Below are positions 4,962 to 63,109 of a stretch of DNA of 64,000 nt, piece after piece. The first letter of the stretch is position 1; the number at the start of each line of letters is the position of its first letter. Below the pieces are notes generated by a model that worked only from the letters and a program-made list of their open reading frames with translations, was not told the DNA's origin and made no database searches. The position numbers and the translations under genes are program-made. The DNA is from a virus (lineage: Duplodnaviria > Caudoviricetes): the IMG/VR virus record IMGVR_UViG_3300033076_001145, positions 96,001 to 160,000 of that record; one strand, written 5' to 3'.

Positions 4962-5651
4962 TTAATTCGTAATTTCATTATAGAACTTACTTAACTTATC
5001 TATATTCATAGTGAATACTTGTCCTTCCTTTTGTGTTTGTGGTTTTACATGTGGGTTTCTCTTTAATGCATATTCATATAGTGTTTTACTATCAGTTCCC
5101 ACATTTATTATTCCTGTCTCCTCTGATAGAGTTAAGTCTTTAATCATCGGGGCAATTATATCCACATAGTCTTTTGAGACCTCTCTGTTATCATATGCAT
5201 ATTCATATGGGTATTCTGTTGACCCGAATGATGTTCGTATGATTAAAGAGTTCCTATAACCTCTTACAGAACATTCTCCACCTAACTTTGTCCATGCGTA
5301 GAAGTTAAACGGATAAATCGGGTCGTTTTCTTTATGGTTCCCACCTTTTGAATCATATACATAATCAGTGGAAATATATACTAACCTTATATTATTCTCT
5401 ATACAGTATTTCGTTACATTTGATACTCCTACTATATTTGTGTTAATTGCATCTATTGGATTATTATCTATATCCACCGAGTTTGTTTTTGCTGCCGCAA
5501 GTAATATAATATCAGGATTGATTATGTTTAACTTGGAGTATAATTCACTCTCCACAGTTATGTCTATCTCACTTCCCGCAAGAATAAAATCCGATATCTT
5601 TTTAAATTCAGAACCAAGTAACCCCGTTCCACCTAACATAAGAACTTTCAT
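4962..5651 (-). CDS. rmlD: dTDP-4-dehydrorhamnose reductase-like SDR
   Basis: GGTGLLG, YISTDYVY, YAWTK (YxxxK) motifs. Confidence 0.8.
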   Translation of the reverse strand: MKVLMLGGTGLLGSEFKKISDFILAGSEIDITVESELYSKLNIINPDIILLAAAKTNSVDIDNNPIDAINTNIVGVSNVTKYCIENNIRLVYISTDYVYDSKGGNHKENDPIYPFNFYAWTKLGGECSVRGYRNSLIIRTSFGSTEYPYEYAYDNREVSKDYVDIIAPMIKDLTLSEETGIINVGTDSKTLYEYALKRNPHVKPQTQKEGQVFTMNIDKLSKFYNEITN

Positions 5652-6033: not shown

Positions 6034-6363
6034 ATGAAATACATAATCAAAGAATCACAAATAAATAATGTTGTATTTTGGTATTTGGATAATCAGGATT
6101 TTATTAAGATTGAAAGGAGTCGTAATATTTATTTTGTTAATTCAGAAGGGGATGAATATGCTCAAATAAGACTTGATAAAGATGATGGCTGGTGTTTTAT
6201 TAATATTAATTTAATTAGAGAAATTTCTTCTTTCTTTTCTTTACAACCTTATGATTCTAAAGAAGTTATCGGCAGATGGGTTGATAATACCCTCCGAATG
6301 AAGGTCACAAACACCCAATATTCAAGAGGTAAAGGCCAGAAAAGGTTGATAATACCCAAATAA
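6034..6363 (+). CDS. Family B small protein (LDNQDF...YAQIR...WVxNTLxMKVTNT) with spacer-encoded tail
   Basis: Paralog of 6379, 56395, 58889, 59643, 62716, 63026. Confidence 0.8.
   Translation: MKYIIKESQINNVVFWYLDNQDFIKIERSRNIYFVNSEGDEYAQIRLDKDDGWCFININLIREISSFFSLQPYDSKEVIGRWVDNTLRMKVTNTQYSRGKGQKRLIIPK
6280..6363. CRISPR. CRISPR-like mini-array: 36-bp repeat 6280-6315, 29-bp spacer, truncated repeat from 6345
   Basis: GTTGATAATACCCTCCGAATGAAGGTCACAAACACC - spacer - GTTGATAATACCC. Confidence 0.7.
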
Positions 6364-6365
6364 CA

Positions 6366-6373
6366 TATTTATA
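6366..6373 (+). promoter_or_regulatory. Recurrent phage motif TATTTATA a few nt upstream of ATG (putative phage-specific/late promoter)
   Basis: Also at 6713-6720, 14324-14331, 24064-24071 (+) and 663-670, 59243-59250, 59554-59561, 63016-63023 (-). Confidence 0.6.
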
Positions 6374-6378
6374 ATAAT

Positions 6379-6696
6379 ATGAAATATCTAATTAAAGAGT
6401 CACAAATAAATAATGTTGTATTTTGGTATTTGGATAATCAGGATTTTATTCAGATTAATAAAGGTAATAAGATATATTTTGTTAATTCGGAGGGTGACGA
6501 ATATGCTCAAATTAGATATGATAAATCAGATGGCTGGTGTTTTATTAATATTAATTTAATTAATGAAATTTCTTCTTTCTTTTCTTTGCAACGCTCTGAT
6601 TCTGAAAAAATTATTGGTAAGTGGGTTGAGAATACCCTCCAAATGAAGGTCACAAACACCGCTTTGTTTGAAAAGTTGTATGATGATTTTGGTTGA
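6379..6696 (+). CDS. Family B small protein with spacer-encoded tail
   Basis: Tandem near-duplicate of 6034..6363. Confidence 0.8.
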   Translation: MKYLIKESQINNVVFWYLDNQDFIQINKGNKIYFVNSEGDEYAQIRYDKSDGWCFININLINEISSFFSLQRSDSEKIIGKWVENTLQMKVTNTALFEKLYDDFG

Positions 6697-6710
6697 GAAT
6701 ACCCAAATAA
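6625..6710. CRISPR. CRISPR-like mini-array: repeat 6625-6660, 31-bp spacer, truncated repeat from 6692
   Basis: GTTGAGAATACCCTCCAAATGAAGGTCACAAACACC is the exact reverse complement of the repeats at 59612 and 59679. Confidence 0.75.
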
Positions 6711-7396: not shown

Positions 7397-8059
7397 CTAT
7401 CTTATGTCGTAGAAGTGTTTTACATTTCTTTTTGAATAACGGTCATTTAAAAAATCCCATAGTTGATTAAATCTGTTTTCATCATCACCACATTCTAATT
7501 CAAAGTTTTCACATACATCTTCTATTAAGTTTGATGTGACAAGATGATTAAATTTATATGGTGTCATTGCATTTAATTGTTTTTTCTTATCTGTGTATCT
7601 TTTTGAAGCCACCTTTAAAACATATTGATATATCTGTTCAAGAGTTTCCATATCTATCCTTCTTTTGAAGTAAATAGGTAGTTCTTTTTCTTCCCTCAAT
7701 ACTGATTCATTAATTACATTTCCCAAATTATCATATTTTAAAAGTTCAGTTTCTATAAAAACATCAGCATTTTTTTTCCTCACATCCCATTCAGTCATCC
7801 AAGTAGGACAAACAACAATATTTCCTGAAGTCCATTTATCAATATCTCTTGATATTTTTGTATCAAACCACGACTCAATGTTTGCCGCAGTATCATCAGA
7901 ATCAAAATAAATTTTAAGTAAAGGTTTATTATTATAAGTTGATTGTTCTATAAATGAAACCTCATCATATAAAACATGAATAATTTGCTTAACAAATTTT
8001 AATTTGTGTCCCTCGGATTCTTCCCTTAATATTCTTCTTATGTTTTCTTGTAGGTTCAT
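7397..8059 (-). CDS. MNLQE.IRRILREE-leader protein
   Basis: Leader shared with 8077, 8771, 9112, 11724, 12418; start inferred at MNLQEN. Confidence 0.65.
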   Translation of the reverse strand: MNLQENIRRILREESEGHKLKFVKQIIHVLYDEVSFIEQSTYNNKPLLKIYFDSDDTAANIESWFDTKISRDIDKWTSGNIVVCPTWMTEWDVRKKNADVFIETELLKYDNLGNVINESVLREEKELPIYFKRRIDMETLEQIYQYVLKVASKRYTDKKKQLNAMTPYKFNHLVTSNLIEDVCENFELECGDDENRFNQLWDFLNDRYSKRNVKHFYDIR

Positions 8060-8076
8060 ATTTCTTCTTCTTTGTA

Positions 8077-8769
8077 TTAACAATCTCCTATACTAACATC
8101 TATAGTATGTCCCCTCACTAAATTATTTCCTAATCTGTGTATAAGGGTGCTTATGTTATATATCGCTTGTCTTGTTTTTTGTTTGTTCACAAAACTATCA
8201 TCAGATAAATTAGGATAATATTTTGGTATTTCCACATATAGTTTTAACGAATGTAGAGTTGGTTTAATTTTAAAATCACATATATTTTCCATATCAGGAA
8301 CATCGAGTCTCATTATTGTATCAACAATGAAAATCATTTCCTTTTGTGTTCCAGTAAAACCAAGAACCTTATATAAATTTTCAACCCCTCCAAACATTTT
8401 TGCGGTTTGGTAAATACCCATATCAGAAACCAAATCTTTAATACTTTCTTGGTCTGAGGTCTCTTCCCTTAATATTGACTCATTTAACGGTTCCTCGTCC
8501 AATTTTGAATTTATGTATTTAATTAATGGCGCATCAAATTTATATACATCTTGGGACATGTTGTAATCTTTTAACAGTTCTTTGTTTGACGAAATAAGAT
8601 TTTGAATTGCGTCATAAAAGGCTTCACTTCTATTCTTTCCCCAACTTAAAGAAATTTTAACATCCCTAACCAACCGCTCAAGTTCATTAGCGGTCACCCT
8701 TCTTCTAATGTAATAAGGTAGTTCAGTTCCTTCCCTTAATATTCTTCTTATGGATTCTTGTAGGTTCAT
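8077..8769 (-). CDS. MNLQESIRRILREG-leader protein
   Basis: Leader plus internal repeat 'NESILREE'. Confidence 0.65.
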   Translation of the reverse strand: MNLQESIRRILREGTELPYYIRRRVTANELERLVRDVKISLSWGKNRSEAFYDAIQNLISSNKELLKDYNMSQDVYKFDAPLIKYINSKLDEEPLNESILREETSDQESIKDLVSDMGIYQTAKMFGGVENLYKVLGFTGTQKEMIFIVDTIMRLDVPDMENICDFKIKPTLHSLKLYVEIPKYYPNLSDDSFVNKQKTRQAIYNISTLIHRLGNNLVRGHTIDVSIGDC

Positions 8770-8770
8770 A

Positions 8771-9115
8771 TTATGTATTTGACACTAATTTTTTATATCT
8801 ACTTTTAATTCTATCTTTATAGTAATCTTTTAAACTTTCCATAACCTCACCATACCATTGTGAATCTTCTGGCATTGTACTATATAGTTCGTAATGAATC
8901 CCATCCATTAAAATTGAAATTGTTACATCTATAAACCTATTTAAACTCATAATACTCCCATCTTCTTTATTTGTATTGCGTAACATATTTGATGACATAT
9001 CTAAAGACTCGCTAAACTCCCTCTCTAAATCATTGTTAGGGACTCTACGTCTAATCATCAGGATAGGTTTGGACTCTTCCCTTAGTATTCTTCTTATGGA
9101 TTCTTGCAGGTTCAT
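8771..9115 (-). CDS. MNLQESIRRILREE-leader protein
   Basis: Leader; RRR motif shared with neighbours. Confidence 0.65.
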   Translation of the reverse strand: MNLQESIRRILREESKPILMIRRRVPNNDLEREFSESLDMSSNMLRNTNKEDGSIMSLNRFIDVTISILMDGIHYELYSTMPEDSQWYGEVMESLKDYYKDRIKSRYKKLVSNT

Positions 9116-9369
9116 TTCTTTTTCTTCTTAACACAATTAGGATATTTCTTACCAAACATTGTCTTCATTCCTTTTTGGGTATATCCCGCCCAACACTTTT
9201 CTTGGAGTTCAGATTTATGATTTTCATTTCCACATTTATGACATGTGTATGGGTCGTGTCCGCCTTCAGATAAATTCCAAGACCATCCACACTCCTGACA
9301 AACAATTTTTTTATTTTTGTTATGTAATTCTTCCAATATTATTCTTCTTATGGTCTGTTGTAAATTCAT
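9112..9369 (-). CDS. Small Cys-rich protein (CxxC..CxxC zinc ribbon plus KCWxGY...PNCV motif)
   Basis: CQEC/CHKC; start at MNLQQ after TATTTATA. Confidence 0.6.
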   Translation of the reverse strand: MNLQQTIRRIILEELHNKNKKIVCQECGWSWNLSEGGHDPYTCHKCGNENHKSELQEKCWAGYTQKGMKTMFGKKYPNCVKKKKK

Positions 9370-9430
9370 ATTATTATAAATATCAATTAAAATAAACTGA
9401 AAAAAGTTTTTCAATTTAAGTTTTCTTCCC

Positions 9431-9438
9431 TATATTTG
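9431..9438 (+). promoter_or_regulatory. Bacteroidota -7 promoter box driving the family A array genes
   Basis: TATATTTG 4 nt before ATG 9443. Confidence 0.6.
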
Positions 9439-9442
9439 CCTT

Positions 9443-10228
9443 ATGGACAAAGTATTAAAAGATTTCATATTCCAACAACTATATGAAGAATTGAGTAATG
9501 TGGAGATTATTCCATATAACTACTCCATTTGGTTTATTGACCGAAAAAACGAATATTGGTATTTTGAATTTGAAAAGGATGGAATGTTGTGGTGGAGATA
9601 TGGATTCTTTCTCAGTTTTTTTAAAGTGTTCTCCCTTAGTGATACCGATTTTGAACCCATTCTATCCGCTTGGGTGGAAGAGGTCTTAAATCATAAGGTA
9701 TCTACAACAGGTCGGGAGAAACCAAGGCAACTTTTTCTGGTGGAAGAGGTCCTAAATCATAAGGTATCTACAACCCAAACTTGTTCATATGGTTTGCCTG
9801 AGTGGGTGGAAGAGGTCTTAAATCATAAGGTATCTACAACCCACAATTGCCACGATATTCTACCAGCAGTGGTGGAAGAGGTCCTAAATCATAAGGTATC
9901 TGCAACTCGGCATTTTGACAACCGTTCTCATCCGTTGGTGGAAGAGGTCTTAAATCATAAGGTATCTACAACTTCTCTGAATTCAGGCCAAATGATTGGT
10001 ATGGTGGAAGAGGTATTAAATCATAAGGTATCTACAACCCAAGTCAGGGAGAACAAAGAATCGGTCATGGTGGAAGAGGTCCTAAATTATAAGGTATCAA
10101 CAACTGAGGACCGCATTTCTCAAAACCCAAGGAAGGTGGAAGAGGTCTTAAATCATAAGGTATCCTCAACCTACTTCGATTGGGATAAAAAGGTAATTTT
10201 GGTGGAAGAGGTATTAAAACAAAAATAA
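9443..10228 (+). CDS. Family A protein: ~80-aa domain followed by 22-aa units (VEEVLNHKVSTT + 10 variable aa) encoded by an in-frame CRISPR-like array
   Basis: ORF stays open through 8 repeat-spacer units. Confidence 0.8.
   Translation: MDKVLKDFIFQQLYEELSNVEIIPYNYSIWFIDRKNEYWYFEFEKDGMLWWRYGFFLSFFKVFSLSDTDFEPILSAWVEEVLNHKVSTTGREKPRQLFLVEEVLNHKVSTTQTCSYGLPEWVEEVLNHKVSTTHNCHDILPAVVEEVLNHKVSATRHFDNRSHPLVEEVLNHKVSTTSLNSGQMIGMVEEVLNHKVSTTQVRENKESVMVEEVLNYKVSTTEDRISQNPRKVEEVLNHKVSSTYFDWDKKVILVEEVLKQK
9673..10228. CRISPR. CRISPR-like array A1: 8 full 36-bp repeats plus truncated 9th; 8 unique 30-bp spacers
   Basis: GGTGGAAGAGGTCTTAAATCATAAGGTATCTACAAC at 9673, 9739, 9805, 9871, 9937, 10003, 10069, 10135; partial at 10201; exact 66-bp period. 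Confidence 0.85.
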
Positions 10229-10229
10229 A

Positions 10230-11081
10230 ATGGATAAAATATTAAAAGATTTTATATATCAACAACTATACGAAGAATTGAGTAATGTGGAGATAATTCC
10301 ACATAAGGATTCCATTTGGTTTATTGACCGAGAAAATGAGTATTGGTATTTTGAATTTGATAAGTCAGGAACATTATGGTGGAGATATCATTTCTTTACC
10401 TCGTTTTTTGAGATGTTCTCTATGAAACGCAATGAGTTTACACCCATTCTGTCCGATTGGGTGGAAGAGGTCCTAAATTATAAGGTATCTACAACGACCT
10501 TGATTAGCAAAGGATGCACGGACGAGGTGGAAGAGGTCCTAAATCATAAGGTAACTACAACAAATTTACATACGACACCTGTCCCTGGTAAGGTGGAAGA
10601 GGTCTTAAATCATAAGGTATCCACAACTTTGTCAGCCAATCTCTTGGCACCTTTAATGGTGGAAGAGGTCCTAAATCATAAGGTATCTACAACACGCTGT
10701 ACGGTAATTTATACAACTTCGCTGGTGGAAGAGGTCTTAAATCATAAGGTATCCACATCCAACGCCAAAGAAATTTTACAAAAGCAAACGGTGGAGGATG
10801 TCCTAAATCATAAGGTATCTACAACAATGGCCATCCAATCTTGCAAAGAGAATTGGGTGGAAGAGGTCTTAAATCATAAGGTAATAGAAACCCAAACAGG
10901 GAACGCACCTCCATTGTCATTTGTGAAGGATGTTTTAGATTATAAAGTAACCAAAACTAAAAGAGATTCATCAGTTGATTGGGTTAATGTGGAAGAGATA
11001 TTAACTCATAAGGTATCCTCAACACAAGGATGGGGAGTTGAGGATTGTCACTTGGTTGGGAAGATATTAAATCAAAAATAA
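10230..11081 (+). CDS. Family A protein with in-frame array
   Basis: Tandem paralog of 9443; open through 9 units. Confidence 0.8.
   Translation: MDKILKDFIYQQLYEELSNVEIIPHKDSIWFIDRENEYWYFEFDKSGTLWWRYHFFTSFFEMFSMKRNEFTPILSDWVEEVLNYKVSTTTLISKGCTDEVEEVLNHKVTTTNLHTTPVPGKVEEVLNHKVSTTLSANLLAPLMVEEVLNHKVSTTRCTVIYTTSLVEEVLNHKVSTSNAKEILQKQTVEDVLNHKVSTTMAIQSCKENWVEEVLNHKVIETQTGNAPPLSFVKDVLDYKVTKTKRDSSVDWVNVEEILTHKVSSTQGWGVEDCHLVGKILNQK
10460..11081. CRISPR. CRISPR-like array A2: 9 repeats plus truncated 10th; 9 unique 30-bp spacers; degenerate distal end
   Basis: Repeats at 10460, 10526, 10592, 10658, 10724, 10790, 10856, 10922 (degenerate), 10988; partial at 11054. Confidence 0.85.
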
Positions 11082-11082
11082 A

Positions 11083-11718
11083 ATGGATAAAATATTAAAA
11101 GATTTTATATATCAACAATTATACGAGGAGTTATCAAATGTGGAAATTATTCATCATGGTAAATCAATATGGTTTATTGATAGGGATAATAAATACTGGT
11201 ACTTTGAGCTTGACACATTTAGTAACACTTTATGGTGGAGGTATGATTTCTTTGTATCGTTTTTCAAGGTATTTTCAATGGATAATGAAAAATTCACTCC
11301 AATTATTGCAAATTGGGTTGCAAATATATTAAGTGGTGATTTTGAAGTGTCGAAAAAAGGTTCGGAATTAATTGATGAGGATGGTGTTATAAATAATATT
11401 CTAAATAATAATGGAGTTACTCTTATACCAGCAAATGATGGTATATTTAATAACAGTAGAGCGGAAATTGTAATCAAATCGGAACCTGCAAGTAGGGATT
11501 GGAAGATAGGTGAAGTATTAAAAACTATATCTAAAACCTCACCTCCTTGGGCCTCTCTTATGGTTAATCAAATATTAAAATCCTCATCATCAGTTACTGT
11601 AAATAAAGTATCCAGCTTAGGGAGTTTCCGACAACAATATCATGTGGATGAGGTATTAAAAACAAAATCGTTGTCATACTATCCTGATAGTGTAATAGAT
11701 TCGGTATTAAATAAATAA
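11083..11718 (+). CDS. Family A protein with eroded repeat tail
   Basis: Same N-domain; tail has relics IGEVLKT, MVNQILK, NKVSS, HVDEVLKTK, VIDSVLNK. Confidence 0.7.
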   Translation: MDKILKDFIYQQLYEELSNVEIIHHGKSIWFIDRDNKYWYFELDTFSNTLWWRYDFFVSFFKVFSMDNEKFTPIIANWVANILSGDFEVSKKGSELIDEDGVINNILNNNGVTLIPANDGIFNNSRAEIVIKSEPASRDWKIGEVLKTISKTSPPWASLMVNQILKSSSSVTVNKVSSLGSFRQQYHVDEVLKTKSLSYYPDSVIDSVLNK

Positions 11719-11723
11719 AGTAA

Positions 11724-12050
11724 TTAACGACATTCCCTCTGATAAGTATTCTTTAAGTGCTCGGTGAATTTTTTACTAGCATAATCCACCATTAACTTAT
11801 AAGACTCTCCCCACTCAACAGTATTTTCATCCATATCGGAGAAGAAGTCCCAATACATAGATGTTATGGCTTTTTCAATTACCGTTTCAACATATTGTTC
11901 CTTTGACAATCCACAAACATTATATTGAACTTTAACTTCTTTAATTGCAAAATCAATCTGCCAATCAATTGCGTGTAGTCTTCTTTTAACACTATTTGGG
12001 ACCTCTGTTGATTCTTTTAATACTCTCTTTATGGATTCTCTGAGTTTCAT
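11724..12050 (-). CDS. MKLRESIKRVLKES-leader protein
   Basis: Leader motif; TATTTATA upstream. Confidence 0.6.
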   Translation of the reverse strand: MKLRESIKRVLKESTEVPNSVKRRLHAIDWQIDFAIKEVKVQYNVCGLSKEQYVETVIEKAITSMYWDFFSDMDENTVEWGESYKLMVDYASKKFTEHLKNTYQRECR

Positions 12051-12082: not shown

Positions 12083-12421
12083 ATGAAGGATGACAATCAA
12101 TTAGAGGAACTTGTATTTGCATATCTTAATGCTCAGGACTTTGAAATTATCCATAAAGAAGGTTATCATAAATACGCATACTTTGTTTATGACAAGGATG
12201 ACGCTCACGCTCAGATAATGTATCACAAAACCTTTGTTGTGATTTCTAAAGAGTTGTCGGATGAAATTAATTCTTATTTCAATGTTCCTTCAGGTGATAA
12301 CGCATCAGTTGAAATTAAAAATTGGATTGAGTCAAAGTTAAACACTAAAATTGATATTTGGGATGTTAAAATATATGGTGGAATGATGGGCGATGCCTGG
12401 TTATCTGTTAATGAGGATTAA
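12083..12421 (+). CDS. Family B paralog without recognisable array
   Basis: YLNAQDF...HAQIMY...EINSYF...WIESKL. Confidence 0.65.
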   Translation: MKDDNQLEELVFAYLNAQDFEIIHKEGYHKYAYFVYDKDDAHAQIMYHKTFVVISKELSDEINSYFNVPSGDNASVEIKNWIESKLNTKIDIWDVKIYGGMMGDAWLSVNED

Positions 12422-13135
12422 AATATCATATCTTCATCCATTTTATCCTGAATATCTTGTTGAGCAATAGGTAATAGTTCATTCATAATGATGTCATATA
12501 CACCTGGTAAATAAACTTCATCATACCAACTAAACAACTCTTCAACACTATCAAATCTTGTTTTGTCTTGTAACACTTTGAAATAGTCTCCTTCCCCAGC
12601 GATTTCAACAACTACCTGTTTACCAATTTTTCTACTTCTATCCTCCAAAGAAAACCAATCAATTTCAACAGGTGTATAATCAAGTCCATCCCAAAATGGT
12701 GTGGCCATTGCCGTAATAAGTTCAGTATAATTAGGGAGAAATTCTCCCGTTTTAATCTCACCATCCCAATAAAAAATACCATCCAAATTTGTTTGTATAT
12801 TAAATTCATTGTAGGTATCTTTCAATTTACCTTTTTCTAAATTTTCAATTAATAATTCGTTCGCAATTTTTGAATTGATTTCAATTTTTGAAAGTTTGAC
12901 TAATTGTGTCGTACTAACACCAAGGTATTTTTTTGCTTCATATATACCAACCTCGTCAATTAGTTCAAGAATAGAATTTTGAAATTTATCTTCAGAATCT
13001 TCTCTTAATATTTTTCTTATGTTATCCCTTAGATTCATATCATTATAAATACCACTTAAAATGAAAACCCCACTGAGTAGCGAATTCAATGGGGTTAATG
13101 TAGCCTAAACTACAGCGGTCCTAAGCCCACTTTCT

Positions 13136-13651
13136 TTAATCATAATCTTTTAAATTATACTTATCAATTATCTGTTGGAATATTTGATTTCTATATGTTT
13201 TTGCTAATGTTTCTCTTTTTGGTATAAAAGAATATCCAAATCCCGAACTTCCACTCATTCCTACGACTCTCCAAACAACTCTTCCGTCTACGTAATTAAC
13301 TTTTCGTAATCTAGCATCAAAAGAATATTGCATGTCATTTTTCCTACCAAATTTAAACTTACCTAATTTTTTTTCATCTTTACCAAAATCCTCCAAATTT
13401 AAGTGTTGGACAAGATTGTCATCAAAATACATATTAACCTCATTACCTTCTCTAATATAATAAGGTCCAACATTTTCATTTTTGTAAAATTCCTTTAGGT
13501 TTCCACCATAAACCATTTTTATGTAGTTTGAGACACTACCAAACATTCTTTCAATCTGATACCAACCTATTTCATTATAAAGACCTTTTAAGTCGTTATC
13601 TGACGGCTCTTCAGTTTCTTCTTTTAATATTTTCTTAATTAAATCTTTCAT
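13136..13651 (-). CDS. MKDLIKKILKEET-leader protein
   Basis: First 13 aa identical to 31277 ORF. Confidence 0.6.
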   Translation of the reverse strand: MKDLIKKILKEETEEPSDNDLKGLYNEIGWYQIERMFGSVSNYIKMVYGGNLKEFYKNENVGPYYIREGNEVNMYFDDNLVQHLNLEDFGKDEKKLGKFKFGRKNDMQYSFDARLRKVNYVDGRVVWRVVGMSGSSGFGYSFIPKRETLAKTYRNQIFQQIIDKYNLKDYD

Positions 13652-14334: not shown

Positions 14335-15048
14335 ATGTCAAAATATACCCAAGAGGAAATGTCAGTAATATCATCAATGATGATTACATTATTAGATGAT
14401 TATGATTATCACGGTATAACAATTCGTTTTTCAGGTGATTATAGTAAAAAGAGGATTTATGGTGTTGATTATCAACTTCCTGTATTTAAAATTGACAATC
14501 CAAATGATTTACCGTATTCAATGCCGACTATTATATTGGAATGGGCAGATGAAGAATTAGGTAATATAGGAAAACTTATTAATATACCTGATTTAAGATG
14601 GGAAAGGGAATTTTTGAAATTCTTTAATAAAACTGATAGGGATTACTACATTCCACCCAAAATGAAACAAGGAATTAAAAAGTGCTTAAACACTCCTGAG
14701 GTTGATGTTAAATTTAGAAAAGGTAATACTATATACACTGTTACTGGGTCATTTTCTACAGATGCAGGTTTTGAGATGTATTGGGACAGCTCCGAGGATT
14801 TCAGAATTTTTGTTGATTTTAATATAAGTAAAGTATGGATAGAGGACCTAAATTATAAAGACAAATATGGATTTTTGGAACTTGGTCCATATATTATAGA
14901 TTTACTTTACGATTTTCACTATGACGATAGTAGTATTTTTGAAGGTTTAGTTTGGCATTGTTTTGAAGATTTAATGGGATACCGTAGTTTTATTGACAGG
15001 GATTGGCAATTTATTGCAGTAACTCCAAATTTTGGTTTTCAGAAATAA
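14335..15048 (+). CDS. Hypothetical protein; paralog of 23338..24054
   Basis: Shared 'I.NPNDL.YS' motif. Confidence 0.6.
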   Translation: MSKYTQEEMSVISSMMITLLDDYDYHGITIRFSGDYSKKRIYGVDYQLPVFKIDNPNDLPYSMPTIILEWADEELGNIGKLINIPDLRWEREFLKFFNKTDRDYYIPPKMKQGIKKCLNTPEVDVKFRKGNTIYTVTGSFSTDAGFEMYWDSSEDFRIFVDFNISKVWIEDLNYKDKYGFLELGPYIIDLLYDFHYDDSSIFEGLVWHCFEDLMGYRSFIDRDWQFIAVTPNFGFQK

Positions 15049-15404
15049 TAGTTAAAAATCTTACAATCAGGATTTAAGTCTTTTAAATCAGGAAACATTA
15101 TATCACCAATACTATCGTTATTAATATGTGAAATATGTAATTCTGTAAAGTATTTGGCATACTTCTCATAAGTTTTCTTTCCTCCAATACACCAATCAAC
15201 ATCCAATATTAACTCGTCTCTTTCATCGATAATCACTTCTCTATTCTTTAGTTTTGGTAAATTAATTGATGTATTATACCCAACAAGTAATCTTTTATTT
15301 AATGTCTGTTTAATAAAATGTGACATATCTTGTTGAGAGTTCCATAACAACTTGTTATCTAAACCAATGTAAGAGAGATTGTTTTTGGCGATTATCGCTT
15401 TCAT
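15039..15404 (-). CDS. folA: Dihydrofolate reductase (short)
   Basis: IG.DNKLLW...DM.HF...T, LPKLKNR, IGG..TY, GD..FP motifs. Confidence 0.8.
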   Translation of the reverse strand: MKAIIAKNNLSYIGLDNKLLWNSQQDMSHFIKQTLNKRLLVGYNTSINLPKLKNREVIIDERDELILDVDWCIGGKKTYEKYAKYFTELHISHINNDSIGDIMFPDLKDLNPDCKIFNYYF

Positions 15405-15839: not shown

Positions 15840-16844
15840 TTATATTGTATCCATACTCTCTGAGAATATAACTTCTCGAATCAATCCACAAGACTTTTTA
15901 ATTATGTTTTCAAAATAAATCTTAAAGAATTCTTTATCAACAAAAAGTCTTTCACTTCCATTATGTATTAATTTAAAAGTTCCAACTTGTTCTAAAACAT
16001 CCACTTTATTAACCACAAGATGTGTCACTCCATTAATATTACACGCTTTGATTAAATCATCTAAGTTCGTCCATCCAATTTGTCTTGGTCTTCCTGTTGT
16101 TGAGCCGTATTCATTTCCAACACCTCTAATCATTTCAAATATTTCATTTGGTTCCTCAAATTGTTTGGCCCCAACATATGTATTATAAGCTTTACAAATA
16201 CCATAAACCTTTCGTATCGATTGAGGTGGAACTCCATTCATAATCGCACTTCCAACCGTGCAGTGTGAGGATGTTACATAAGGATAATCACCCCAATCAA
16301 TATCGAGTTCAAACCCTTGTGCTCCTTCAAACAATATTTTGGTTTCTGTCTTATGTAACTCATCATAAATGTCAATCATAAATGACTCTAATATTTCAGC
16401 ATGTTCCGCTCTATTACCAACACGAGAATACTTGTCACTATAACATGGACCATTACCTGTTTTGGTTGTTCCAATCTTTGTGTCTGTTGAGTCTTTATCA
16501 ATATGTTCAGGAGTTATAATATGAACTCTCTTGTCTATAAACAAATTACCGATTACCTCGACACCCGAACTTTCGAGTTGTTGTATTTCTTGTAATAGTT
16601 TAATTGGATTGACCACACATCCAGGTCCAATGATTGATTTTACACCATTTACAATTCCTGATGGAATAAAATGTGTGACAATCTTCTTTCCGTTTTTATA
16701 GATGGTATGTCCAGCATTTCCTCCACCATTATATCTTACCACATGAGTATATTCATTTGGTATTTGACTCAATGTATTACATACTTTTCCTTTTCCAGTG
16801 TCGCCTGATTGCAAATCGACAATTACATCCGCATAATTAATCAT
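15840..16844 (-). CDS. purA: Adenylosuccinate synthetase (short form)
   Basis: GDTGKGK, RYNGGGNAGHT, IGTT..GNGP, FEGAQG, GDYPYVTSS, EYGSTTGRPR, KVDVL. Confidence 0.92.
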   Translation of the reverse strand: MINYADVIVDLQSGDTGKGKVCNTLSQIPNEYTHVVRYNGGGNAGHTIYKNGKKIVTHFIPSGIVNGVKSIIGPGCVVNPIKLLQEIQQLESSGVEVIGNLFIDKRVHIITPEHIDKDSTDTKIGTTKTGNGPCYSDKYSRVGNRAEHAEILESFMIDIYDELHKTETKILFEGAQGFELDIDWGDYPYVTSSHCTVGSAIMNGVPPQSIRKVYGICKAYNTYVGAKQFEEPNEIFEMIRGVGNEYGSTTGRPRQIGWTNLDDLIKACNINGVTHLVVNKVDVLEQVGTFKLIHNGSERLFVDKEFFKIYFENIIKKSCGLIREVIFSESMDTI

Positions 16845-51403: not shown

Positions 51404-53275
51404 TTATTTAACTTCCTCAAAATCTACATCATTCACCTCAGCGTCCTGACCATTCATATTCTCAGTCATTTCTTGTACTTGTGAGTAAATCTTTTCAGAT
51501 ACCTTTTGGAAAGATGTATTAACTTTCTCCATACCTTCTTTGATTTTCTCAATGTCCTTTGATGAATGAGCTGACTTTAGTTCGTCAATTGCCGATGTCA
51601 ATTCAGTCTTTTCTTCTTCTGACAACTTATCTTCCAAATCTTTCATTGTCTTTTCAGTTTGGAAAATTAATCCGTCAGCTTGGTTGATTACCTCAGCATC
51701 TTCTTTGGCTTTCTTGTCAGCATCTGCGTTCATTTCAGCTTCTTGTTTCATTCTTTCAATTTCGTCTTTTGAAAGTCCTGATGACGCTTCAATGCGAATG
51801 TTTTGTTGTTTGTTGGTTCCCTTATCAATTGCCGATACATTAATAATACCATTAGCATCAATGTCAAACACAACTTCAATTTGTGGAACACCTCTCATTG
51901 CCGGTGGAAGACCATCCAAGTGGAAACGACCAATGGTTCGGTTGTCTCTAGCCATTGCTCTTTCTCCCTGTAACACATGGATTTCAACTGATGGTTGGTT
52001 ATCAACTGCGGTTGAGAATACTTGTGATTTCTTGGTTGGGATTGTCGTGTTTGATTCAATCAACTTTGTGAATACTCCACCCATTGTTTCAATACCAAGT
52101 GATAGTGGTGTAACATCTAACAACAATACATCCTTAACATCACCGGCCAATACTCCGCCTTGGATTGCCGCTCCAAGAGCAACTACCTCATCAGGATTAA
52201 CACCCTTTGATGGTTCCTTACCAAAGAATTTCTTAACCGCTTCTTGGATTGCTGGAATACGAGTTGAACCTCCAACCAAAATGATTTCGTCAATTTCTCC
52301 AACTGTAAGGTTTGCGTTTGCCATAGCTTTCTTACAAGGTTCAATTGTTCTTTGAACCAAACTATCAACAAGTTGTTCAAACTTTGCCTTTGTCAATGTT
52401 CTAACCAAGTGTTTTGGAACACCATCAACTGGCATAATGTATGGTAAGTTGATTTCAGTTGAAGGTGAAGATGACAATTCAATCTTTGCCTTCTCAGCCC
52501 CTTCACGAAGTCTTTGTAACGCCATTGGGTCTTTGGTTAAATCCAATCCATTCTCGTCTTGGAATTCTTTTACTAACCAATCAACAATTGCTTGGTCAAA
52601 GTCATCACCACCCAAGTGAGTGTCTCCGTCTGTTGCCAGTACCTCAAACACACCGTCACCAAGTTCCAATACAGATACATCGTGAGTTCCACCACCACAG
52701 TCAAATACCACAACTTTTAAATCTTTTGATTGTTTGTCTAAACCATATGATAGACATGCTGCGGTTGGTTCGTTGATAAGTCTCAATACTTTAAGACCTG
52801 CAATTTCAGCAGCTTCCTTTGTTGCTTGTCTTTGTGAGTCATTGAAGTATGCTGGAACTGTAATAACAGCTTCAGTAACTTCACTTCCCAAATAATCTTC
52901 AGCCGTTTGTTTCATCTTTTGTAAAACCATTGCTGAGATTTCTTGTGGAGAATATTTTCTTCCCTCAATATCTACTCTTGGTGTATCTCCCTCACCTTTA
53001 ACTACCTTATATGGAACACGCTTAACTTCACCTTTACTTTCGGTGAAACTTGTTCCCATAAATCGTTTGATTGAATAAATTGTTTTATCTGGGTTTGTAA
53101 CCGCTTGTCTTTTCGCTGGGTCACCAACCTTTCTCTCACCATCTTTAACGAAACCCACAATTGAAGGTGTGGTTCTTTTACCTTCACTGTTTGTAATTAC
53201 GATAGGCTCTGAGCCTTCCATGATTGCGACACACGAATTTGTTGTGCCTAAATCCACGCCAATTATTTTTCCCAT
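51404..53275 (-). CDS. dnaK: Chaperone DnaK (Hsp70)
   Basis: [62 protein letters not shown]. Confidence 0.97.
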
Positions 53276-58888: not shown

Positions 58889-59239
58889 TTATAAGGTAAT
58901 TTGTTTTTGTGTAAAGATTAATTGGGGGGTATTCTCAACCATCAGCTCCTTTGTTGGAAATGATATCGGGGTATTTGTAACCTTCATTTGGGTGGTATTC
59001 TCAACCCATCGTCCAATAACTTTTTCAGAATCAGAGCGTTGTAAAGAAAAGTAGGAATAAATTTCGTTAGTTAAATTAAAATCAATAAAACACCAACCAT
59101 CATCTTTATCAAATCTTATTCGAGCGTATTTATCATTCTCTGAATTTACAAAACAAATTTTATCATTACCCATATCAATCTGAATGAAGTCCTGACTATC
59201 CAAATAAGAAAATATTACTCTTTCTAAATGTTTGTCCAT
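58889..59239 (-). CDS. Family B protein with 30-bp in-frame spacer
   Basis: WVENTTQMKVTNT-PISFPTKELM-VENTP. Confidence 0.75.
   Translation of the reverse strand: MDKHLERVIFSYLDSQDFIQIDMGNDKICFVNSENDKYARIRFDKDDGWCFIDFNLTNEIYSYFSLQRSDSEKVIGRWVENTTQMKVTNTPISFPTKELMVENTPQLIFTQKQITL
58921..59005. CRISPR. Mini-array: partial repeat ending 58939, 30-bp spacer, repeat 58970-59005
   Basis: GGGGGTATTCTCAAC ... GGTATTTGTAACCTTCATTTGGGTGGTATTCTCAAC. Confidence 0.7.
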
Positions 59240-59253
59240 GATTATAAATATGA

Positions 59254-59550
59254 TTAATAACCAACAATTGGACTAGCAACCTCCACATTAATAGATTCAA
59301 TTCCGAGTTTATCTTCAATCCATTTATTGATTACACTAATGGAATCCCCATAATCTAAAGAAAAGAATTTGCTGACTTCTTCGGCCAAATCATAGTGTAT
59401 TGTGCACCATCGGTCTTTTGGGAGGTATTTAATCTGAGCAAATTCATCATCTTCTGAATTAACAAAATATATCCTATACTTCATTTTAATTACAACAAAG
59501 TCCTGTCCATCCAAATAAGAAAATATTACTCGTTCTAAATGTTTGTCCAT
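59254..59550 (-). CDS. Family B paralog without recognisable array
   Basis: MDKHLERVIFSYLDGQDF...WIEDKL. Confidence 0.7.
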   Translation of the reverse strand: MDKHLERVIFSYLDGQDFVVIKMKYRIYFVNSEDDEFAQIKYLPKDRWCTIHYDLAEEVSKFFSLDYGDSISVINKWIEDKLGIESINVEVASPIVGY

Positions 59551-59570
59551 GATTATAAATACATTAGTTA

Positions 59571-59714
59571 GGTATTCTCAACAGAGCAGTGGAAACGTTT
59601 TCAGAACTATAGGTGTTTGTGACCTTCATTTGGAGGGTATTCTCAACAAGAGATGAATAGCGAATACCTTCCCGCTTGGGTGTTTGTGACCTTCATTTGG
59701 AGGGTATTCTCAAC
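59571..59714. CRISPR. Mini-array: two identical 36-bp repeats (59612-59647, 59679-59714), partial repeat ending 59582, spacers of 29 and 31 bp
   Basis: GGTGTTTGTGACCTTCATTTGGAGGGTATTCTCAAC x2. Confidence 0.85.
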
Positions 59715-59951
59715 CCATTTACCAATAACTTGTTCAGAATCAGAGCTTTGCAAAGAAAAGAAAGAAGAAATTTCTTTAACTAAATTAGTATGAATAAAAC
59801 ACCATCCATCATCTTCGTCATATCTAATTTGAGCGTATTCGTCACCTTCTGAACTAACAAAAAAAATTTTATCATTACCCATATCAATCTGAATGAAGTC
59901 TTGGCTATCCAAATAAGAAAATATTACTCGTTCTAAATCTTTGTCCATCAT
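59643..59951 (-). CDS. Family B protein with spacer-encoded tail
   Basis: WVENTLQMKVTNT-QAGRYSLFISC*; stop lies within the next repeat. Confidence 0.8.
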   Translation of the reverse strand: MMDKDLERVIFSYLDSQDFIQIDMGNDKIFFVSSEGDEYAQIRYDEDDGWCFIHTNLVKEISSFFSLQSSDSEQVIGKWVENTLQMKVTNTQAGRYSLFISC

Positions 59952-60466
59952 AACTTAATCCCAGTATTATATATGGTTTCCCAATTATTTTTCTCACAAT
60001 AATCCAAAAAGTCCTTTGGTGAATATCTATATGACTCCTCAATCCCATATACCCATGAAACAAACTCAGAGCAATACATCTTATCCTGTTCATGGTTCAA
60101 TGGTTTTTTATTCCACTTACCAGTTAATAATTCAATCGGTTGTTTGATAATTAATCCCTCAAAGTCATAAGCCGTTAATCCAACTTTGCTCATGGCTTTA
60201 ACCGCAATTTTCTTTTCAGCAATTACCTTTGGTCTTCTTTGGATGATGAAGTTATATTGGTATTCTTTAAGCCAGTTTTCAAATGGTTTAACATTAACTC
60301 CATTATCCTGAGCATCAATGATATATGGTTCACCCCATATCCAAATGAAAAGAGCTGTGTGATTTATTTCAGACTTTGTTGCCCATCTTATGGCTCTACT
60401 CAACCAACTTTTTCCACGACAATGTAACACATCACCGGTTTTTAATTCATCTATATTCAAACTCAT
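59948..60466 (-). CDS. Permuted papain-like NlpC/P60 (YaeF/YiiX-like) amidase
   Basis: LKTGDVL, NHTAL, G..YDF, MYCSEFV. Confidence 0.8.
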   Translation of the reverse strand: MSLNIDELKTGDVLHCRGKSWLSRAIRWATKSEINHTALFIWIWGEPYIIDAQDNGVNVKPFENWLKEYQYNFIIQRRPKVIAEKKIAVKAMSKVGLTAYDFEGLIIKQPIELLTGKWNKKPLNHEQDKMYCSEFVSWVYGIEESYRYSPKDFLDYCEKNNWETIYNTGIKL

Positions 60467-60548
60467 AATGATAAATATTGGAATATATAATAAAAAAGTC
60501 TTTCCATTTATTCAAACATAATATATTTATTTATTAAACAATTAAATT

Positions 60549-61160
60549 TTGGAAATTTCATCAGAAGTTATAGTTGCGTTTATTACAGGTGTAGTTGGGC
60601 CAACATCTATCATGTTTTTAAAACATTACCTAACCGCAAAGAAAAAGAAACCAGATTTGGTTCATGAGACCTTAAAGGTTAGCGAACTTGTCAATTCAAA
60701 GATTGAACACATTAAAGAAGAATTCAATGCCGATAGAGTATGGATAACTCAATTCCATAATGGTGGGAACTTCTATCCAACAGGAAAATCAATGGCAAAG
60801 TTCAGTATCATTTATGAAACAGTTCATCCCGGTGTTAATTCAATTCAATCAAACTTCCATAACATTCCAGTTAATTTGTTTTCAAAGTCAATCAATGAAT
60901 TATTACAAAATGATATAATTGAAATCCCTGATTTTAAAGATGAAAAAATTTCCACATTTGGTTTAAAATATGTCGCAGAAGAGAACGGATGTAAGTCAGG
61001 TTACCTTTTCGCAATTAAAACAATTGATGGAAGATTTATTGGAACCTTAGGTTTGGACTATACAAAGAGAAAGACAAACTTAGATATGGAATCAATTAAT
61101 CATTTACAAGTCCACGCATCTTCTTTGGGTGGAGTTTTAATGACTCACTTAAATCAATAA
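60549..61160 (+). CDS. N-terminal TM plus GAF-like domain protein (possible holin)
   Basis: Single TM; ADRVWI.QFHNG...IGTLGLDY. Confidence 0.55.
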   Translation: MEISSEVIVAFITGVVGPTSIMFLKHYLTAKKKKPDLVHETLKVSELVNSKIEHIKEEFNADRVWITQFHNGGNFYPTGKSMAKFSIIYETVHPGVNSIQSNFHNIPVNLFSKSINELLQNDIIEIPDFKDEKISTFGLKYVAEENGCKSGYLFAIKTIDGRFIGTLGLDYTKRKTNLDMESINHLQVHASSLGGVLMTHLNQ

Positions 61161-61166
61161 GATTAA

Positions 61167-61520
61167 TTAGAAACTCTTTTTCCACTTTAATAAGTAGAGA
61201 CCTCTTTCTTTGTTGAGAGGTTCAAAACTTATTCTAAAGTTGTCGTTTAACTGAGCATAAACAGGATAAATTGGAAATTTCCATCCTTCGGTTTCTATAT
61301 GGAATCCCGCCATTCCAACAGGACTATTTTTAATTTTATCTATAAAACTTTTTGGAGTCTCCTCTTTACCGAAATTAACTTTAAGTTGGGTTTTAAAATC
61401 GTCAGGGATTTGAATAGTTGAAATTTTATTAATAGGTCCCTTATCAGTTATTTGTTCTTCAATAACTCGTTTAACAATCTTAACCAAATCTGATTCTGTC
61501 AATTTAATAACCTTTTTCAT
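61167..61520 (-). CDS. MKKVIKLTESDL-leader protein
   Basis: Shared leader; start inferred. Confidence 0.6.
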   Translation of the reverse strand: MKKVIKLTESDLVKIVKRVIEEQITDKGPINKISTIQIPDDFKTQLKVNFGKEETPKSFIDKIKNSPVGMAGFHIETEGWKFPIYPVYAQLNDNFRISFEPLNKERGLYLLKWKKSF

Positions 61521-61589
61521 ATTAAATAAATATATCAATGTTTTTCTTTTTTATTCCATAAATTTTATATCTTAGCCAAAATTATAACA

Positions 61590-62255
61590 ATGGAACTAAA
61601 CTATCCCAACTTAACGGAAGACCAAAAATCAAAGATTGACAAGTTCGTTTCTGACTTGGAAAAGAAATGTGCTGAAAACAATGTTGAGTTGTTTCTTCCC
61701 AACACACCTGGCGTTCAATACCCAGGTTTGGACACCCAAACCAATGGTTATTTTGATTCAAGAAAACCACTTCTTGCTTGTGCAACAGGTAAGGAACTTG
61801 ATAAGTGGTTGTTAATCTTAATTCACGAGTCATCACATATGGACCAGTTTTTAGAAAAGGTTTCAGTATTTGATGAGTCAATTGGATTAGATGAAACATT
61901 TCAATGGATTGGTGGTCTTGAAACTCCTGACTTTGACAAGATTGATAGAGAAATCACATCAGGTATTGCCGTTGAGGTTGATTGTGAGAAAAGAACCGTT
62001 GAGAAGATTAAAGAATACGGATTGGAGTTTGTGGTTGGGATTGATGAATACATTCAAAAATCAAACGCATATGCTCTCTTTTACCTATGGATGAGAAAGA
62101 ACAGAAGTTGGTATAAGATTGGATTTGAGCCATACAATGTTAAATCCATTTATTCCAAGATGCCAAAAACATTTGATGTTGATTATTCAACATTGACAGA
62201 AGATATGACTGAAGCATTTGACGAGTTGTTAGTAATGTCGGATGGGGTTAAATAA
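61590..62255 (+). CDS. HExxH metallopeptidase-like protein
   Basis: LIHESSHMDQ and downstream E.DCE. Confidence 0.6.
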   Translation: MELNYPNLTEDQKSKIDKFVSDLEKKCAENNVELFLPNTPGVQYPGLDTQTNGYFDSRKPLLACATGKELDKWLLILIHESSHMDQFLEKVSVFDESIGLDETFQWIGGLETPDFDKIDREITSGIAVEVDCEKRTVEKIKEYGLEFVVGIDEYIQKSNAYALFYLWMRKNRSWYKIGFEPYNVKSIYSKMPKTFDVDYSTLTEDMTEAFDELLVMSDGVK

Positions 62256-62302
62256 AAAACCCCATCCTTTAGGGATAGGGTAAATCTCTTTTTTAGATTT
62301 GA

Positions 62303-62656
62303 TTACTTGGTGTAAGTTCTTAGACAATGTGCCGCCCAAGCCGCCGCTCCAAGAAAGATTGGCATCAATAGACCTGCTCCACCGAACATTGCAATATGAA
62401 CCGCAACCGCTCCTGACATTACAGATGAAAGAACCAACGCTCCATAAACAGATGTTCTTGGGATACAAAGGGCAATTACACCAGCAACTTCCATAACTCC
62501 AACAAGTGCCATGTAAGGTAACATGTTCATTGCAGTAAAGTTAGTGGTCATAGCCTCGCTTCCCATAATCTTTGACAATCCGCCCATTCCGAGCATAAAG
62601 GTTACGATTACTGTAAGCAACCAACCTAAGTTTTTAAGTGTTAAATAATTTTTCAT
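62303..62656 (-). CDS. DoxX-family membrane protein
   Basis: Four TMs, G..K, G..E..G, P.T...GA, GA.A.H. Confidence 0.8.
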   Translation of the reverse strand: MKNYLTLKNLGWLLTVIVTFMLGMGGLSKIMGSEAMTTNFTAMNMLPYMALVGVMEVAGVIALCIPRTSVYGALVLSSVMSGAVAVHIAMFGGAGLLMPIFLGAAAWAAHCLRTYTK

Positions 62657-62700
62657 ATTCCAAGTATAGGATATGAACTTTACAATGTCAATTGATTTTT

Positions 62701-62787
62701 ATTTGGAGGGTATTATCAACGGATTGAAAAATTGCCTTTGCTCAATGCCATGGTGTTTGTGACCTTCATTTGTAAGGTATTCTCAAC
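62701..62787. CRISPR. Mini-array: partial repeat 62701-62720, 31-bp spacer, repeat 62752-62787
   Basis: ATTTGGAGGGTATTATCAAC ... GGTGTTTGTGACCTTCATTTGTAAGGTATTCTCAAC. Confidence 0.75.
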
Positions 62788-63012
62788 CCACCTACTGATA
62801 ACTTGTTCAGAATCAGAGCGTTGCAAAGAAAAGTAATAAGAAATTTCTTTAATTAAATCCAAACCAATATAACACAAACCATCATCATATCTAATTTGAG
62901 CAAATTCATCATTCTCTGAATAGGCAAAATAGATACTATCATATTTTTTAATCTGAATAAAGTCCTGACTATCCAAATAAGAAAATAATACTCTTTCAAA
63001 ATCTTTGTACAT
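62716..63012 (-). CDS. Family B protein with spacer-encoded tail
   Basis: WVENTLQMKVTNT-MALSKGNFSIR*. Confidence 0.8.
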   Translation of the reverse strand: MYKDFERVLFSYLDSQDFIQIKKYDSIYFAYSENDEFAQIRYDDGLCYIGLDLIKEISYYFSLQRSDSEQVISRWVENTLQMKVTNTMALSKGNFSIR

Positions 63013-63025
63013 GATTATAAATATA

Positions 63026-63109
63026 TTAGTTGGGTATTCTCAACCACTTGTCAATATTCATATACGCATCGGTGGTTTTTGTAACTTTCATTTTTAAGGT
63101 ATTCTCAAC
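63026..63109. CRISPR. Mini-array: partial repeat ending 63044, 29-bp spacer, repeat 63074-63109
   Basis: GGGTATTCTCAAC ... GGTTTTTGTAACTTTCATTTTTAAGGTATTCTCAAC. Confidence 0.65.

Follow-up and report, generated by a model that had tools for sequence, protein, structure and literature searches.

Three tandem genes and their arrays

The DNA analysed here (the window) is a stretch of 64,000 nucleotides, bases 96001–160000 of the 208,634-bp IMG/VR virus record IMGVR_UViG_3300033076_001145, which has a GC content of 32% and a CheckV completeness of 71%; its source is an uncultured lake jumbo phage. We describe three tandem paralogous genes within it, all on the plus strand (genes 1, 2 and 3, at 9443–10228, 10230–11081 and 11083–11718), the first two of which consist of a conserved N-terminal domain (N-domain) followed by a translated array of 36-nt direct repeats and 30-nt spacers. 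An earlier note on this DNA had proposed that DNA-level integration is here combined with protein-level selection, and several independent lines of evidence now support that proposal.

The full repeats of array 1, in gene 1, start at 9673, 9739, 9805, 9871, 9937, 10003, 10069 and 10135, and those of array 2, in gene 2, are seven copies extending from 10460 to 10856; the period is always 66 nt (36 + 30) in both. The repeat, divided into codons, reads G GTG GAA GAG GTC TTA AAT CAT AAG GTA TCT ACA AC. The ATG of gene 2 lies 1 nt past the end of the truncated terminal repeat of array 1, and that of gene 3 likewise lies 1 nt beyond the terminal repeat of array 2. A CRISPR array is generically a series of near-identical direct repeats of 23–55 bp separated by unique spacers of constant length, and the 36 + 30 nt organization of the two arrays conforms to this description.

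The N-domain of genes 1 and 2 has about 77 residues. An AlphaFold2 model of residues 1–99 (pLDDT 79) contains a helix, four strands and two helices, and in this model the first repeat is predicted to code for the C-terminal half of the last N-domain helix. The only matches to the fold in the ESM Atlas are viral hypothetical proteins of about 100 residues (TM 0.70–0.72), a search of the PDB with the N-domain gave nothing convincing (Foldseek E of at least 0.68, best VIA-align Z 5.1), and a single-sequence fold of the full-length protein was uninformative (pLDDT 36). None of the three genes has a significant match in Pfam or PHROGs, and no Rfam match was found in positions 9000–12000 at E values up to 10. 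There are 121 unnamed metagenomic homologues of the gene 1 family, the lengths of which differ in 22-residue steps.

Related arrays, which together with those of genes 1 and 2 we refer to as family A, were collected with two patterns: a degenerate peptide-level pattern yielded 19 related loci in IMG/VR, and a DNA pattern yielded 109 stretches in metagenomes, of which 80 were retrieved. The pooled sets contain 117 distinct arrays and 632 units; the first set used for counting contexts comprises 42 arrays with 122 distinct contexts, and ortholog groups of arrays were defined by their N-domains.

The repeated unit is a 36-bp DNA element

The repeated unit is a 36-bp DNA element whose first base falls on a third codon position. 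In the window, this base ends the codons TGG, CTG, GTG, TTG, ATG, AAG, GAG or ACG, and is thus a G whatever the amino acid, with a T only at 10922 and 10988, where the copies are decayed; the description in the earlier note is accurate, and the rule holds more widely, in 120 of the 122 distinct contexts of the first set and in 351 of 377 contexts in the full set of 117 arrays. Codon bias does not explain the G: with tryptophan and methionine codons set aside it is present in 86 of 88 contexts, as compared with 16.7 expected from phage codon usage (P ~1e-47), and lysine before the repeat is encoded by AAG in 23 cases and by AAA in none, although the phage uses AAA for 79% of its lysine codons. 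At the other end, the repeat closes with the AC of a threonine codon whose third base varies, as had also been claimed (T in 39 cases, A in 31, G in 25 and C in 25).

Third-position identity between paralogous arrays is 87–90% in the repeats but only 39–55% in the N-domains, and repeat positions 4, 7, 25, 28 and 34 are nearly invariant even though the codons GTG and AAG are rare in the phage. Because synonymous sites are constrained and an out-of-phase G is invariant, the repeat is a DNA element, and the suggestion that the unit was not a peptide is borne out. Differences from the repeat consensus comprise 16 synonymous and 13 non-synonymous changes in the window, where 22% would be expected to be synonymous (p 1e-4), and 196 and 178, respectively, in the well-kept copies of the full set; the synonymous excess therefore persists in the larger sample, although to call the variants mostly synonymous was a slight overstatement. 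We note also that a TTA/CTA leucine codon alternates between neighbouring repeats of the window between 9673 and 10900 (first base T C T C T. C T in array 1 and C C T C T C T in array 2); this was considered as a general rule and rejected, as neighbours in the related arrays are more alike than permuted ones.

One account of these genes would be an ordinary coding tandem repeat, in which a 66-bp unit is duplicated, the linkers diverge and the constant part undergoes concerted evolution. A synonymous excess within the repeats is in keeping with this, as is a repeat peptide forming part of a domain helix, but a G that is invariant out of codon phase and the retention of the rare codons GTG and AAG are not, and further departures emerge from the linkers and from the direction in which the arrays change.

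Growth of the arrays and selection on their inserts

Of 515 intervals in family A, 496 are 66 nt long, twelve are 138 nt, four are 132 nt, and there is one each of 75, 105 and 135 nt. All are multiples of three, as tandem coding repeats would have it. The 138-nt class results from a 42-nt form of the repeat (VEDVLSHNVKVSTT) with an in-frame 6-nt insertion, which is flanked by normal 30-nt spacers and is conserved across several phages (at 2103–2144 of related locus L012, and also in L013, L014, L018, L019, L022, L024 and L026). Adjacent spacers share 8.3 of 30 positions, as compared with 7.95 for random spacer pairs, and those lying between repeats identical at 36 of 36 positions share 7.9 of 30 (n = 71). 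Because adjacent spacers are at random identity even between identical repeats, duplication followed by divergence cannot account for them; homology does not extend over the whole unit, and the tandem-repeat account fails on this point as well.

The arrays are polarised. Within an ortholog group they are collinear subsets of a master order with the 3′ spacers in common, and arrays of one group differ mostly at the 5′ end, beside the gene body. For example, in the three largest groups distinct first spacers are found in 13 of 18, 16 of 20 and 8 of 10 arrays, as against 5 of 18, 5 of 20 and 5 of 10 for the last spacers, and the share of spacers unique to one array declines by quintile from 5′ to 3′ (.43,.29,.28,.14,.08; Mann–Whitney p 6e-9). 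The repeats follow a gradient in the same direction, with repeats 1 and 2 identical in 31 of 103 arrays, mismatches between neighbouring repeats climbing from 1.8 to 6.2 toward the 3′ end, and mismatches to the array's own consensus climbing from 1.25 to 4.6 (rho 0.56, p 2e-39); in the terminal repeat of related arrays the first ~19 nt are retained. Polarised gain and a degenerate terminal repeat are features of CRISPR arrays, and the new spacers here appear at the gene-body end. For such arrays, random loss of internal units together with gain beside the leader is behaviour already on record (PMC11472070). Two other CRISPR characters are absent, in that the upstream 230 nt are not a non-coding AT-rich leader but a conserved folded domain, and the array itself is coding, with spacers that are stop-free and under selection. 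This polarity, too, is foreign to an ordinary tandem repeat.

That related arrays follow one master order as collinear subsets, that units have often been gained and lost inside them, and that one spacer can occur beside different neighbours are all compatible with a different explanation, namely a hypervariable cassette protein without any integrase, the 36 bp providing recombination homology by which 66-bp cassettes are shuffled, deleted and imported among paralogues and co-infecting phages. Such a protein could be likened to multi-core peptide precursors, in which hypervariable cores lie between constant recognition sequences, with its novelty drawn from an unknown source. That the gene family has the repeat peptide as a native feature also speaks for it, but it leaves unexplained both the origin of unrelated 30-nt inserts and the concentration of singletons at the 5′ end, and it does not account for the age gradient of the repeats.

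The inserts are under purifying selection as peptides. There is not a single in-frame stop in any of 255 distinct internal spacers, as compared with 79 and 125 in the other two frames, and a comparison of orthologous spacers between phages reveals 48 variable columns that are synonymous and 37 that are non-synonymous, which corresponds to a ratio of non-synonymous to synonymous change (pN/pS) of 0.23 (p 3e-11), close to the 0.22 of the adjoining N-domain; the changes fall 14, 21 and 50 at codon positions 1, 2 and 3. The codon-position composition of the spacers is protein-like (G1 0.28, T2 0.245), and random 30-mers filtered for an open frame fail to reproduce it, although at third positions the spacers do fit filtered random DNA (p 0.099) and not the coding third positions of the phage (p 1e-16). 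The pN/pS ratio and the codon-position pattern indicate that the inserts are conserved as peptides and are not merely open. Selection of this type would also be in keeping with a cassette protein.

A related family of small proteins (family B), with at least seven genes in the window (6034–6696, plus strand; 58889–63355, minus strand), offers a spacer ruler that is independent of frame. Family B genes end in a different 36-nt repeat, encoding VENTLQMKVTNT, and are organized as a repeat, one or two spacers, a repeat truncated after 12–20 nt, and the promoter of the next gene. The spacers, in the window and on other contigs, are unrelated to one another and are 29 nt (8 distinct), 30 nt (3) or 31 nt (5) in length, with 18 nt seen once. 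Inserts of 29–31 nt that ignore triplets suggest the ruler of an integrase and not coding evolution, and the cassette explanation does not account for them. Gene 59643–59951 has its stop codon where the second repeat begins, and thus this repeat, although identical to the first, is untranslated; it is followed by a truncated third repeat at 59571–59582. An identical repeat outside the reading frame is not to be expected of a coding tandem repeat, and with the random linkers, the out-of-phase G and the polarity we consider that explanation very unlikely.

The terminal repeat of family B supplies a stop in all three frames (for example at 6316–6363, and at 63026–63100 on the minus strand). After a 29-nt spacer it is read in another frame and the C-terminus is always L(R/K)IP(N/K/S) followed by a stop; after a 31-nt spacer the TGA inside GTTGA ends translation at once, and after a 30-nt spacer the protein ends in VENT. 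The same pattern is present in related loci L088, L009 and L012.

Table 1. Positions of the genes, arrays and other elements in the window
Feature	Position	Strand	Description
Element TATATTTG	9431–9438	+	ends 4 nt before the ATG of gene 1
Gene 1	9443–10228	+	261 aa; N-domain, 8 units of 22 aa, truncated unit
Gene 1 N-domain coding sequence	9443–9672	+	in the place where a CRISPR array has its leader
Array 1	9673–10200	+	8 units of 36-nt repeat and 30-nt unique spacer
Array 1 truncated terminal repeat	10201–10228	+	contains stop codon; first 18 nt retained
Gene 2	10230–11081	+	283 aa; paralogous N-domain and 9 units
Array 2	10460–11053	+	7 well-kept units; decayed units at 10922 and 10988
Array 2 truncated terminal repeat	11054–11081	+	contains stop codon
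Gene 3	11083–11718	+	N-domain as in genes 1 and 2; irregular peptide relics (xVxxVLKxK), no regular array
Two family B genes	6034–6705	+	repeats 6280–6315 and 6625–6660; single 29-nt or 31-nt spacer; truncated repeat last
Family B gene with array to 59571	59643–59951	−	repeats 59679–59714 and 59612–59647, 36/36 identical; spacers of 31 and 29 nt
Family B gene	58889–59239	−	30-nt spacer; second, decayed repeat read in frame
Two family B genes	62716–63355	−	single spacers of 31 nt and 29 nt
MNLQE gene family	7397–9414, 11724–12050, 12418–13089, 13136–13651	−	also at related locus L023:3207–4381
Four auxiliary-gene ORFs	4962–5651, 15039–15404, 15840–16844, 51404–53275	−	

Type VI-B arrays, a possible mechanism and known systems

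The phage repeat resembles the CRISPR-2 repeat of Flavobacterium columnare (sequence from PMC5395568, Table 4), to which it is identical at 25 of 36 positions in an ungapped alignment, including all of the last 12 (shuffle P 5e-7), and the family B repeat agrees with this host sequence in 22 of 36 (P 2.5e-6). The F. columnare array lies directly after an open reading frame (ORF) of 1226 residues that is Cas13b (NF038190, E 7e-235), and the likeness is thus to a repeat verified to adjoin cas13b, in addition to the type VI-B format of a 36-nt repeat with ~30-nt spacers that the phage arrays share. The phage and host repeats correspond mainly at their two ends. When 185,579 species genomes were scanned for the F. 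columnare repeat end followed by a 29–31-nt gap and the repeat start, true arrays were seen in two species only, F. columnare and F. covae, with spacings of 65, 66 or 67 nt, and a phage-type array in no bacterium. In F. covae AL-02-36 there is no ORF longer than 700 aa within 15 kb on either side of the VI-B-type array, unlike F. columnare ATCC 23463, in which cas13b directly precedes the array; we note also that the F. covae array ends with an interruption of ~70 nt between two partial repeats.

Type VI-B direct repeats have termini of 5′-GTTG and CAAC-3′ that are able to pair. The termini of the phage repeat are GGTG and CAAC, in which pairs 1–36 and 3–34 can form in 87 of 89 distinct repeats but pair 2–35 in only 7 of 89; the family B repeat starts with GTTG and ends with CACC. 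The stable internal stem-loop of VI-B repeats is lacking, with a minimum free energy of −4.2 kcal/mol (z −0.2) for the phage repeat as compared with −10.9 (z −3.0) for that of the host. Stem pair 13–25 is broken in 51 of the 89 distinct repeats and pair 14–24 in 11, with no compensating changes. The GTCTTA/TAAGGT hairpin that the earlier note had put forward for a covariation analysis therefore finds no support, the fold being at the level of shuffled sequence, and loss of the stem speaks against Cas13b recognizing the repeat as RNA.

It is nonetheless worth considering that the arrays act as RNA with a host Cas13b, either as guides directed at competitors or as a decoy that mimics the repeat (an RNA anti-CRISPR), the open frame being incidental, for example because translation protects the transcript. 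The 36 + 30 format and the repeat ends match VI-B arrays, and the arrays lie on the sense strand in the transcribed orientation of the repeat. For CRISPR types other than VI, repeat mimics in phages have been described, but PMC10651486, whose search masked ORFs, reports no type VI case. Against an RNA role stand the lost stem without covariation, the lack of any target in the sequences searched, the absence of in-frame stops from all 255 spacers, and spacer changes whose distribution over codon positions reflects a protein-level rather than a guide-RNA constraint; we regard such a role as very unlikely.

Two lines point to a Bacteroidota host for the phage. The first is the element TANNTTTG, the established Bacteroidota −7 promoter element, which is present upstream of 26 of 269 ORFs in the phage genome, where 8 would be expected. 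It ends exactly 4 nt from the ATG in 11 ORFs, including gene 1, where TATATTTG is likely to be a Bacteroidota-type −7 promoter for the three-gene unit; the 4-nt distance at 11 ORFs suggests leaderless or nearly leaderless mRNAs transcribed from promoters of this type. A scan for sigma-70 promoters and terminators yielded nothing informative. The second line is the DnaK encoded by the phage (51404–53275, minus strand), the nearest relatives of which are DnaKs of huge uncultured phages (66%). A related record with a short family A array, IMGVR_UViG_3300032050_015761, is classed in IMG/VR as a provirus, and if this is right its flanks could name the host.

Besides DnaK, the window encodes an RmlD-like reductase, a short DHFR-like protein and an adenylosuccinate synthetase, auxiliary metabolic and chaperone genes such as very large phages typically carry. 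The window also contains a second multi-copy gene family, its members sharing an N-terminal MNLQE(S/H)IRR(I/V)LREE followed by unrelated bodies; some end in CWxGYTQKGMKTMFGK(K/R)YPNCVKK, and the DNA of this end is ~80% identical to that of 'hypothetical proteins' of Synechococcus and Prochlorococcus phages. Among the ten neighbouring ORFs there are matches to RmlD-like, DHFR and adenylosuccinate synthetase proteins or nothing, many neighbours being without a known family.

We favor the explanation that a host enzyme builds the arrays by integration of the CRISPR-adaptation type, its target being a repeat that is at the same time coding sequence, and would give this a probability of roughly 0.6. 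The arrays would be built unit by unit, through staggered cuts at both ends of the 36-bp repeat, insertion of ~30 bp and duplication of the repeat, with insertion at the gene-body end where a CRISPR leader would stand. In this view the phage repeat is a relative of the Flavobacterium type VI-B (Cas13b) repeat. We infer both an integrase of host origin, as no Cas1 was found in the phage records searched, and a source from which the inserts are drawn; the integrase would most likely be the host Cas1-Cas2, and a II-C enzyme serves the VI-B array in trans in F. columnare. The F. columnare VI-B locus itself is without adaptation genes and receives its spacers from the II-C Cas1-Cas2 acting in trans (Hoikkala et al. 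2021, PMC8092290). In coding terms the same 36 bp would specify the last part of a small phage protein's C-terminal helix (VEEVLNHKVSTT), and as a result family A may keep only inserts that are exactly 30 bp, stop-free and non-hydrophobic. Once fixed, the 10-residue inserts would be subject to purifying selection to the same degree as the folded domain, and the product would be a protein with a 22-residue period of 12 constant and 10 hypervariable residues, perhaps a variable one that acts in host interaction or counter-defence and belongs to an accessory gene island. A more specific version, which we advance tentatively and at a little short of even odds, is that the CRISPR integration machinery of the host, probably Cas1-Cas2, writes 10-residue modules into phage proteins, the repeat-like 36 bp serving as a landing pad and useful peptides being selected; alternatively or additionally, the pad may be a decoy that soaks up adaptation complexes.

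Several observations weigh against integration by a host CRISPR enzyme. Cas1 (PF01867) was not found in six phage records of 133–241 kb that are 37–82% complete, nor Cas13b (NF038190) in five incomplete phage records, the largest ORF of the phage's own record being 804 aa. Source sequences (protospacers) were found neither in the 208-kb record itself and the retrieved related loci nor in GenBank phages (one of the searches spanned only part of the arrays, and the cyanophage matches that it returned were rejected, as they lie in the C-terminal CWxGYTQKG motif of a neighbouring gene), and three spacers had no exact match in IMG/VR. For F. columnare II-C the flanking motif of source sequences would be NNNNNTAAA. 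For the 17 spacers of the window, no source, only AT-rich junction noise, was seen in 121 Flavobacterium, 400 Flavobacteriales and 400 Flavobacteriaceae genomes, although this 921-genome search scored only the top two or three first-look candidates per genome and its sensitivity is uncertain. F. columnare and F. covae, the only species with true arrays among the 185,579 genomes scanned, are not established as hosts of the phage, and the coding sequence upstream of the phage arrays has no evident likeness to their leader. The family A and family B repeats, which share a codon frame, fit the host repeat in registers 1 nt apart, and so at least part of one of these likenesses must be convergence or chance. 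The repeats also vary far more than those of a working CRISPR array, and the peptide motif WVExxLxxKV ends array-less paralogues too, so that the repeat may derive from the gene's own 3′ end and not from a host array.

That no protospacers and no cas genes were found is likewise what the cassette explanation would have. It does not, however, account for the VI-B repeat likeness, donor cassettes are absent from other parts of the genome, and no protease or peptide-modifying enzymes are encoded by the ten neighbouring ORFs; on balance we think it unlikely.

CRISPR arrays are known as a non-coding memory. If host-enzyme integration into these genes is correct, CRISPR adaptation enzymes gain a second evolutionary output, the diversification of proteins in the very elements that they are meant to record; the phages would own a previously unseen kind of hypervariable protein, and the whole would amount to a generator of protein diversity driven by CRISPR adaptation. 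This raises the questions of whether II-C Cas1-Cas2 acts on phage DNA, what the peptide modules bind, and whether loci of this type have been systematically missed by pipelines that mask ORFs or discard 'translated CRISPRs'.

A comparison with known systems reveals both correspondences and differences. Like VI-B arrays, those of the phage have a 36-nt repeat and ~30-nt spacers and grow at the upstream end in the transcribed orientation; their terminal repeat, like that of F. covae, is truncated in its 3′ half, and in family B the spacers are of 29–31 nt. Unlike VI-B arrays, they lie inside protein-coding genes and are translated, with a coding domain in place of the AT-rich leader, the internal stem is lost, the repeats drift, the spacers of family A are of 30 nt only, and in the records searched there are no cas genes or protospacers to go with them. 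Were a spacer integrated at a repeat-like sequence away from a canonical array, that sequence would be duplicated and a new array begun. Off-target insertion of spacers at such sites by Cas1-Cas2 (ectopic or 'neo-CRISPR' integration) was reportedly described by Nivala et al. in 2018; these events are said to be rare and to have been seen in the laboratory, in the host chromosome, whereas the phage products are conserved, multi-unit, selected as proteins and carried in phage genomes.

Diversity-generating retroelements and multi-core peptide precursors share with the arrays sharp boundaries between nucleotide-constant and hypervariable coding segments, and variants that are selected as protein. 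Unlike the retroelements, the phage genome has no template repeat or donor copy, as no second copy of any spacer is present in the 208-kb record, in which no search was made for a reverse transcriptase; unlike the precursors, there are no maturation enzymes among the ten neighbouring ORFs. In contrast to hypervariable coding systems in general, the arrays vary by whole, unrelated inserts of fixed length at one end, and not by point mutagenesis.

Viral arrays without cas genes, mini-arrays and solitary repeat units (RNA anti-CRISPRs; Camara-Wilpert et al. 2023, PMC10651486) are similar in having CRISPR-type repeats that lack cas genes and resemble those of the likely host lineage, but they are small non-coding RNAs that keep the repeat structure, whereas the phage repeats described here are coding, structurally degraded, and arrayed with spacers that encode conserved peptides. 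In the literature searched there is no description of translated and selected CRISPR-type arrays, and such arrays would have been lost from two published pipelines, of which one masks ORFs (PMC10651486) and the other discards 'translated CRISPRs' (PMC10392669). The combination of a 36-base repeat, unrelated 30-base inserts, growth at one end, and inserts that are both readable and conserved as protein was likewise described in none of the papers searched.

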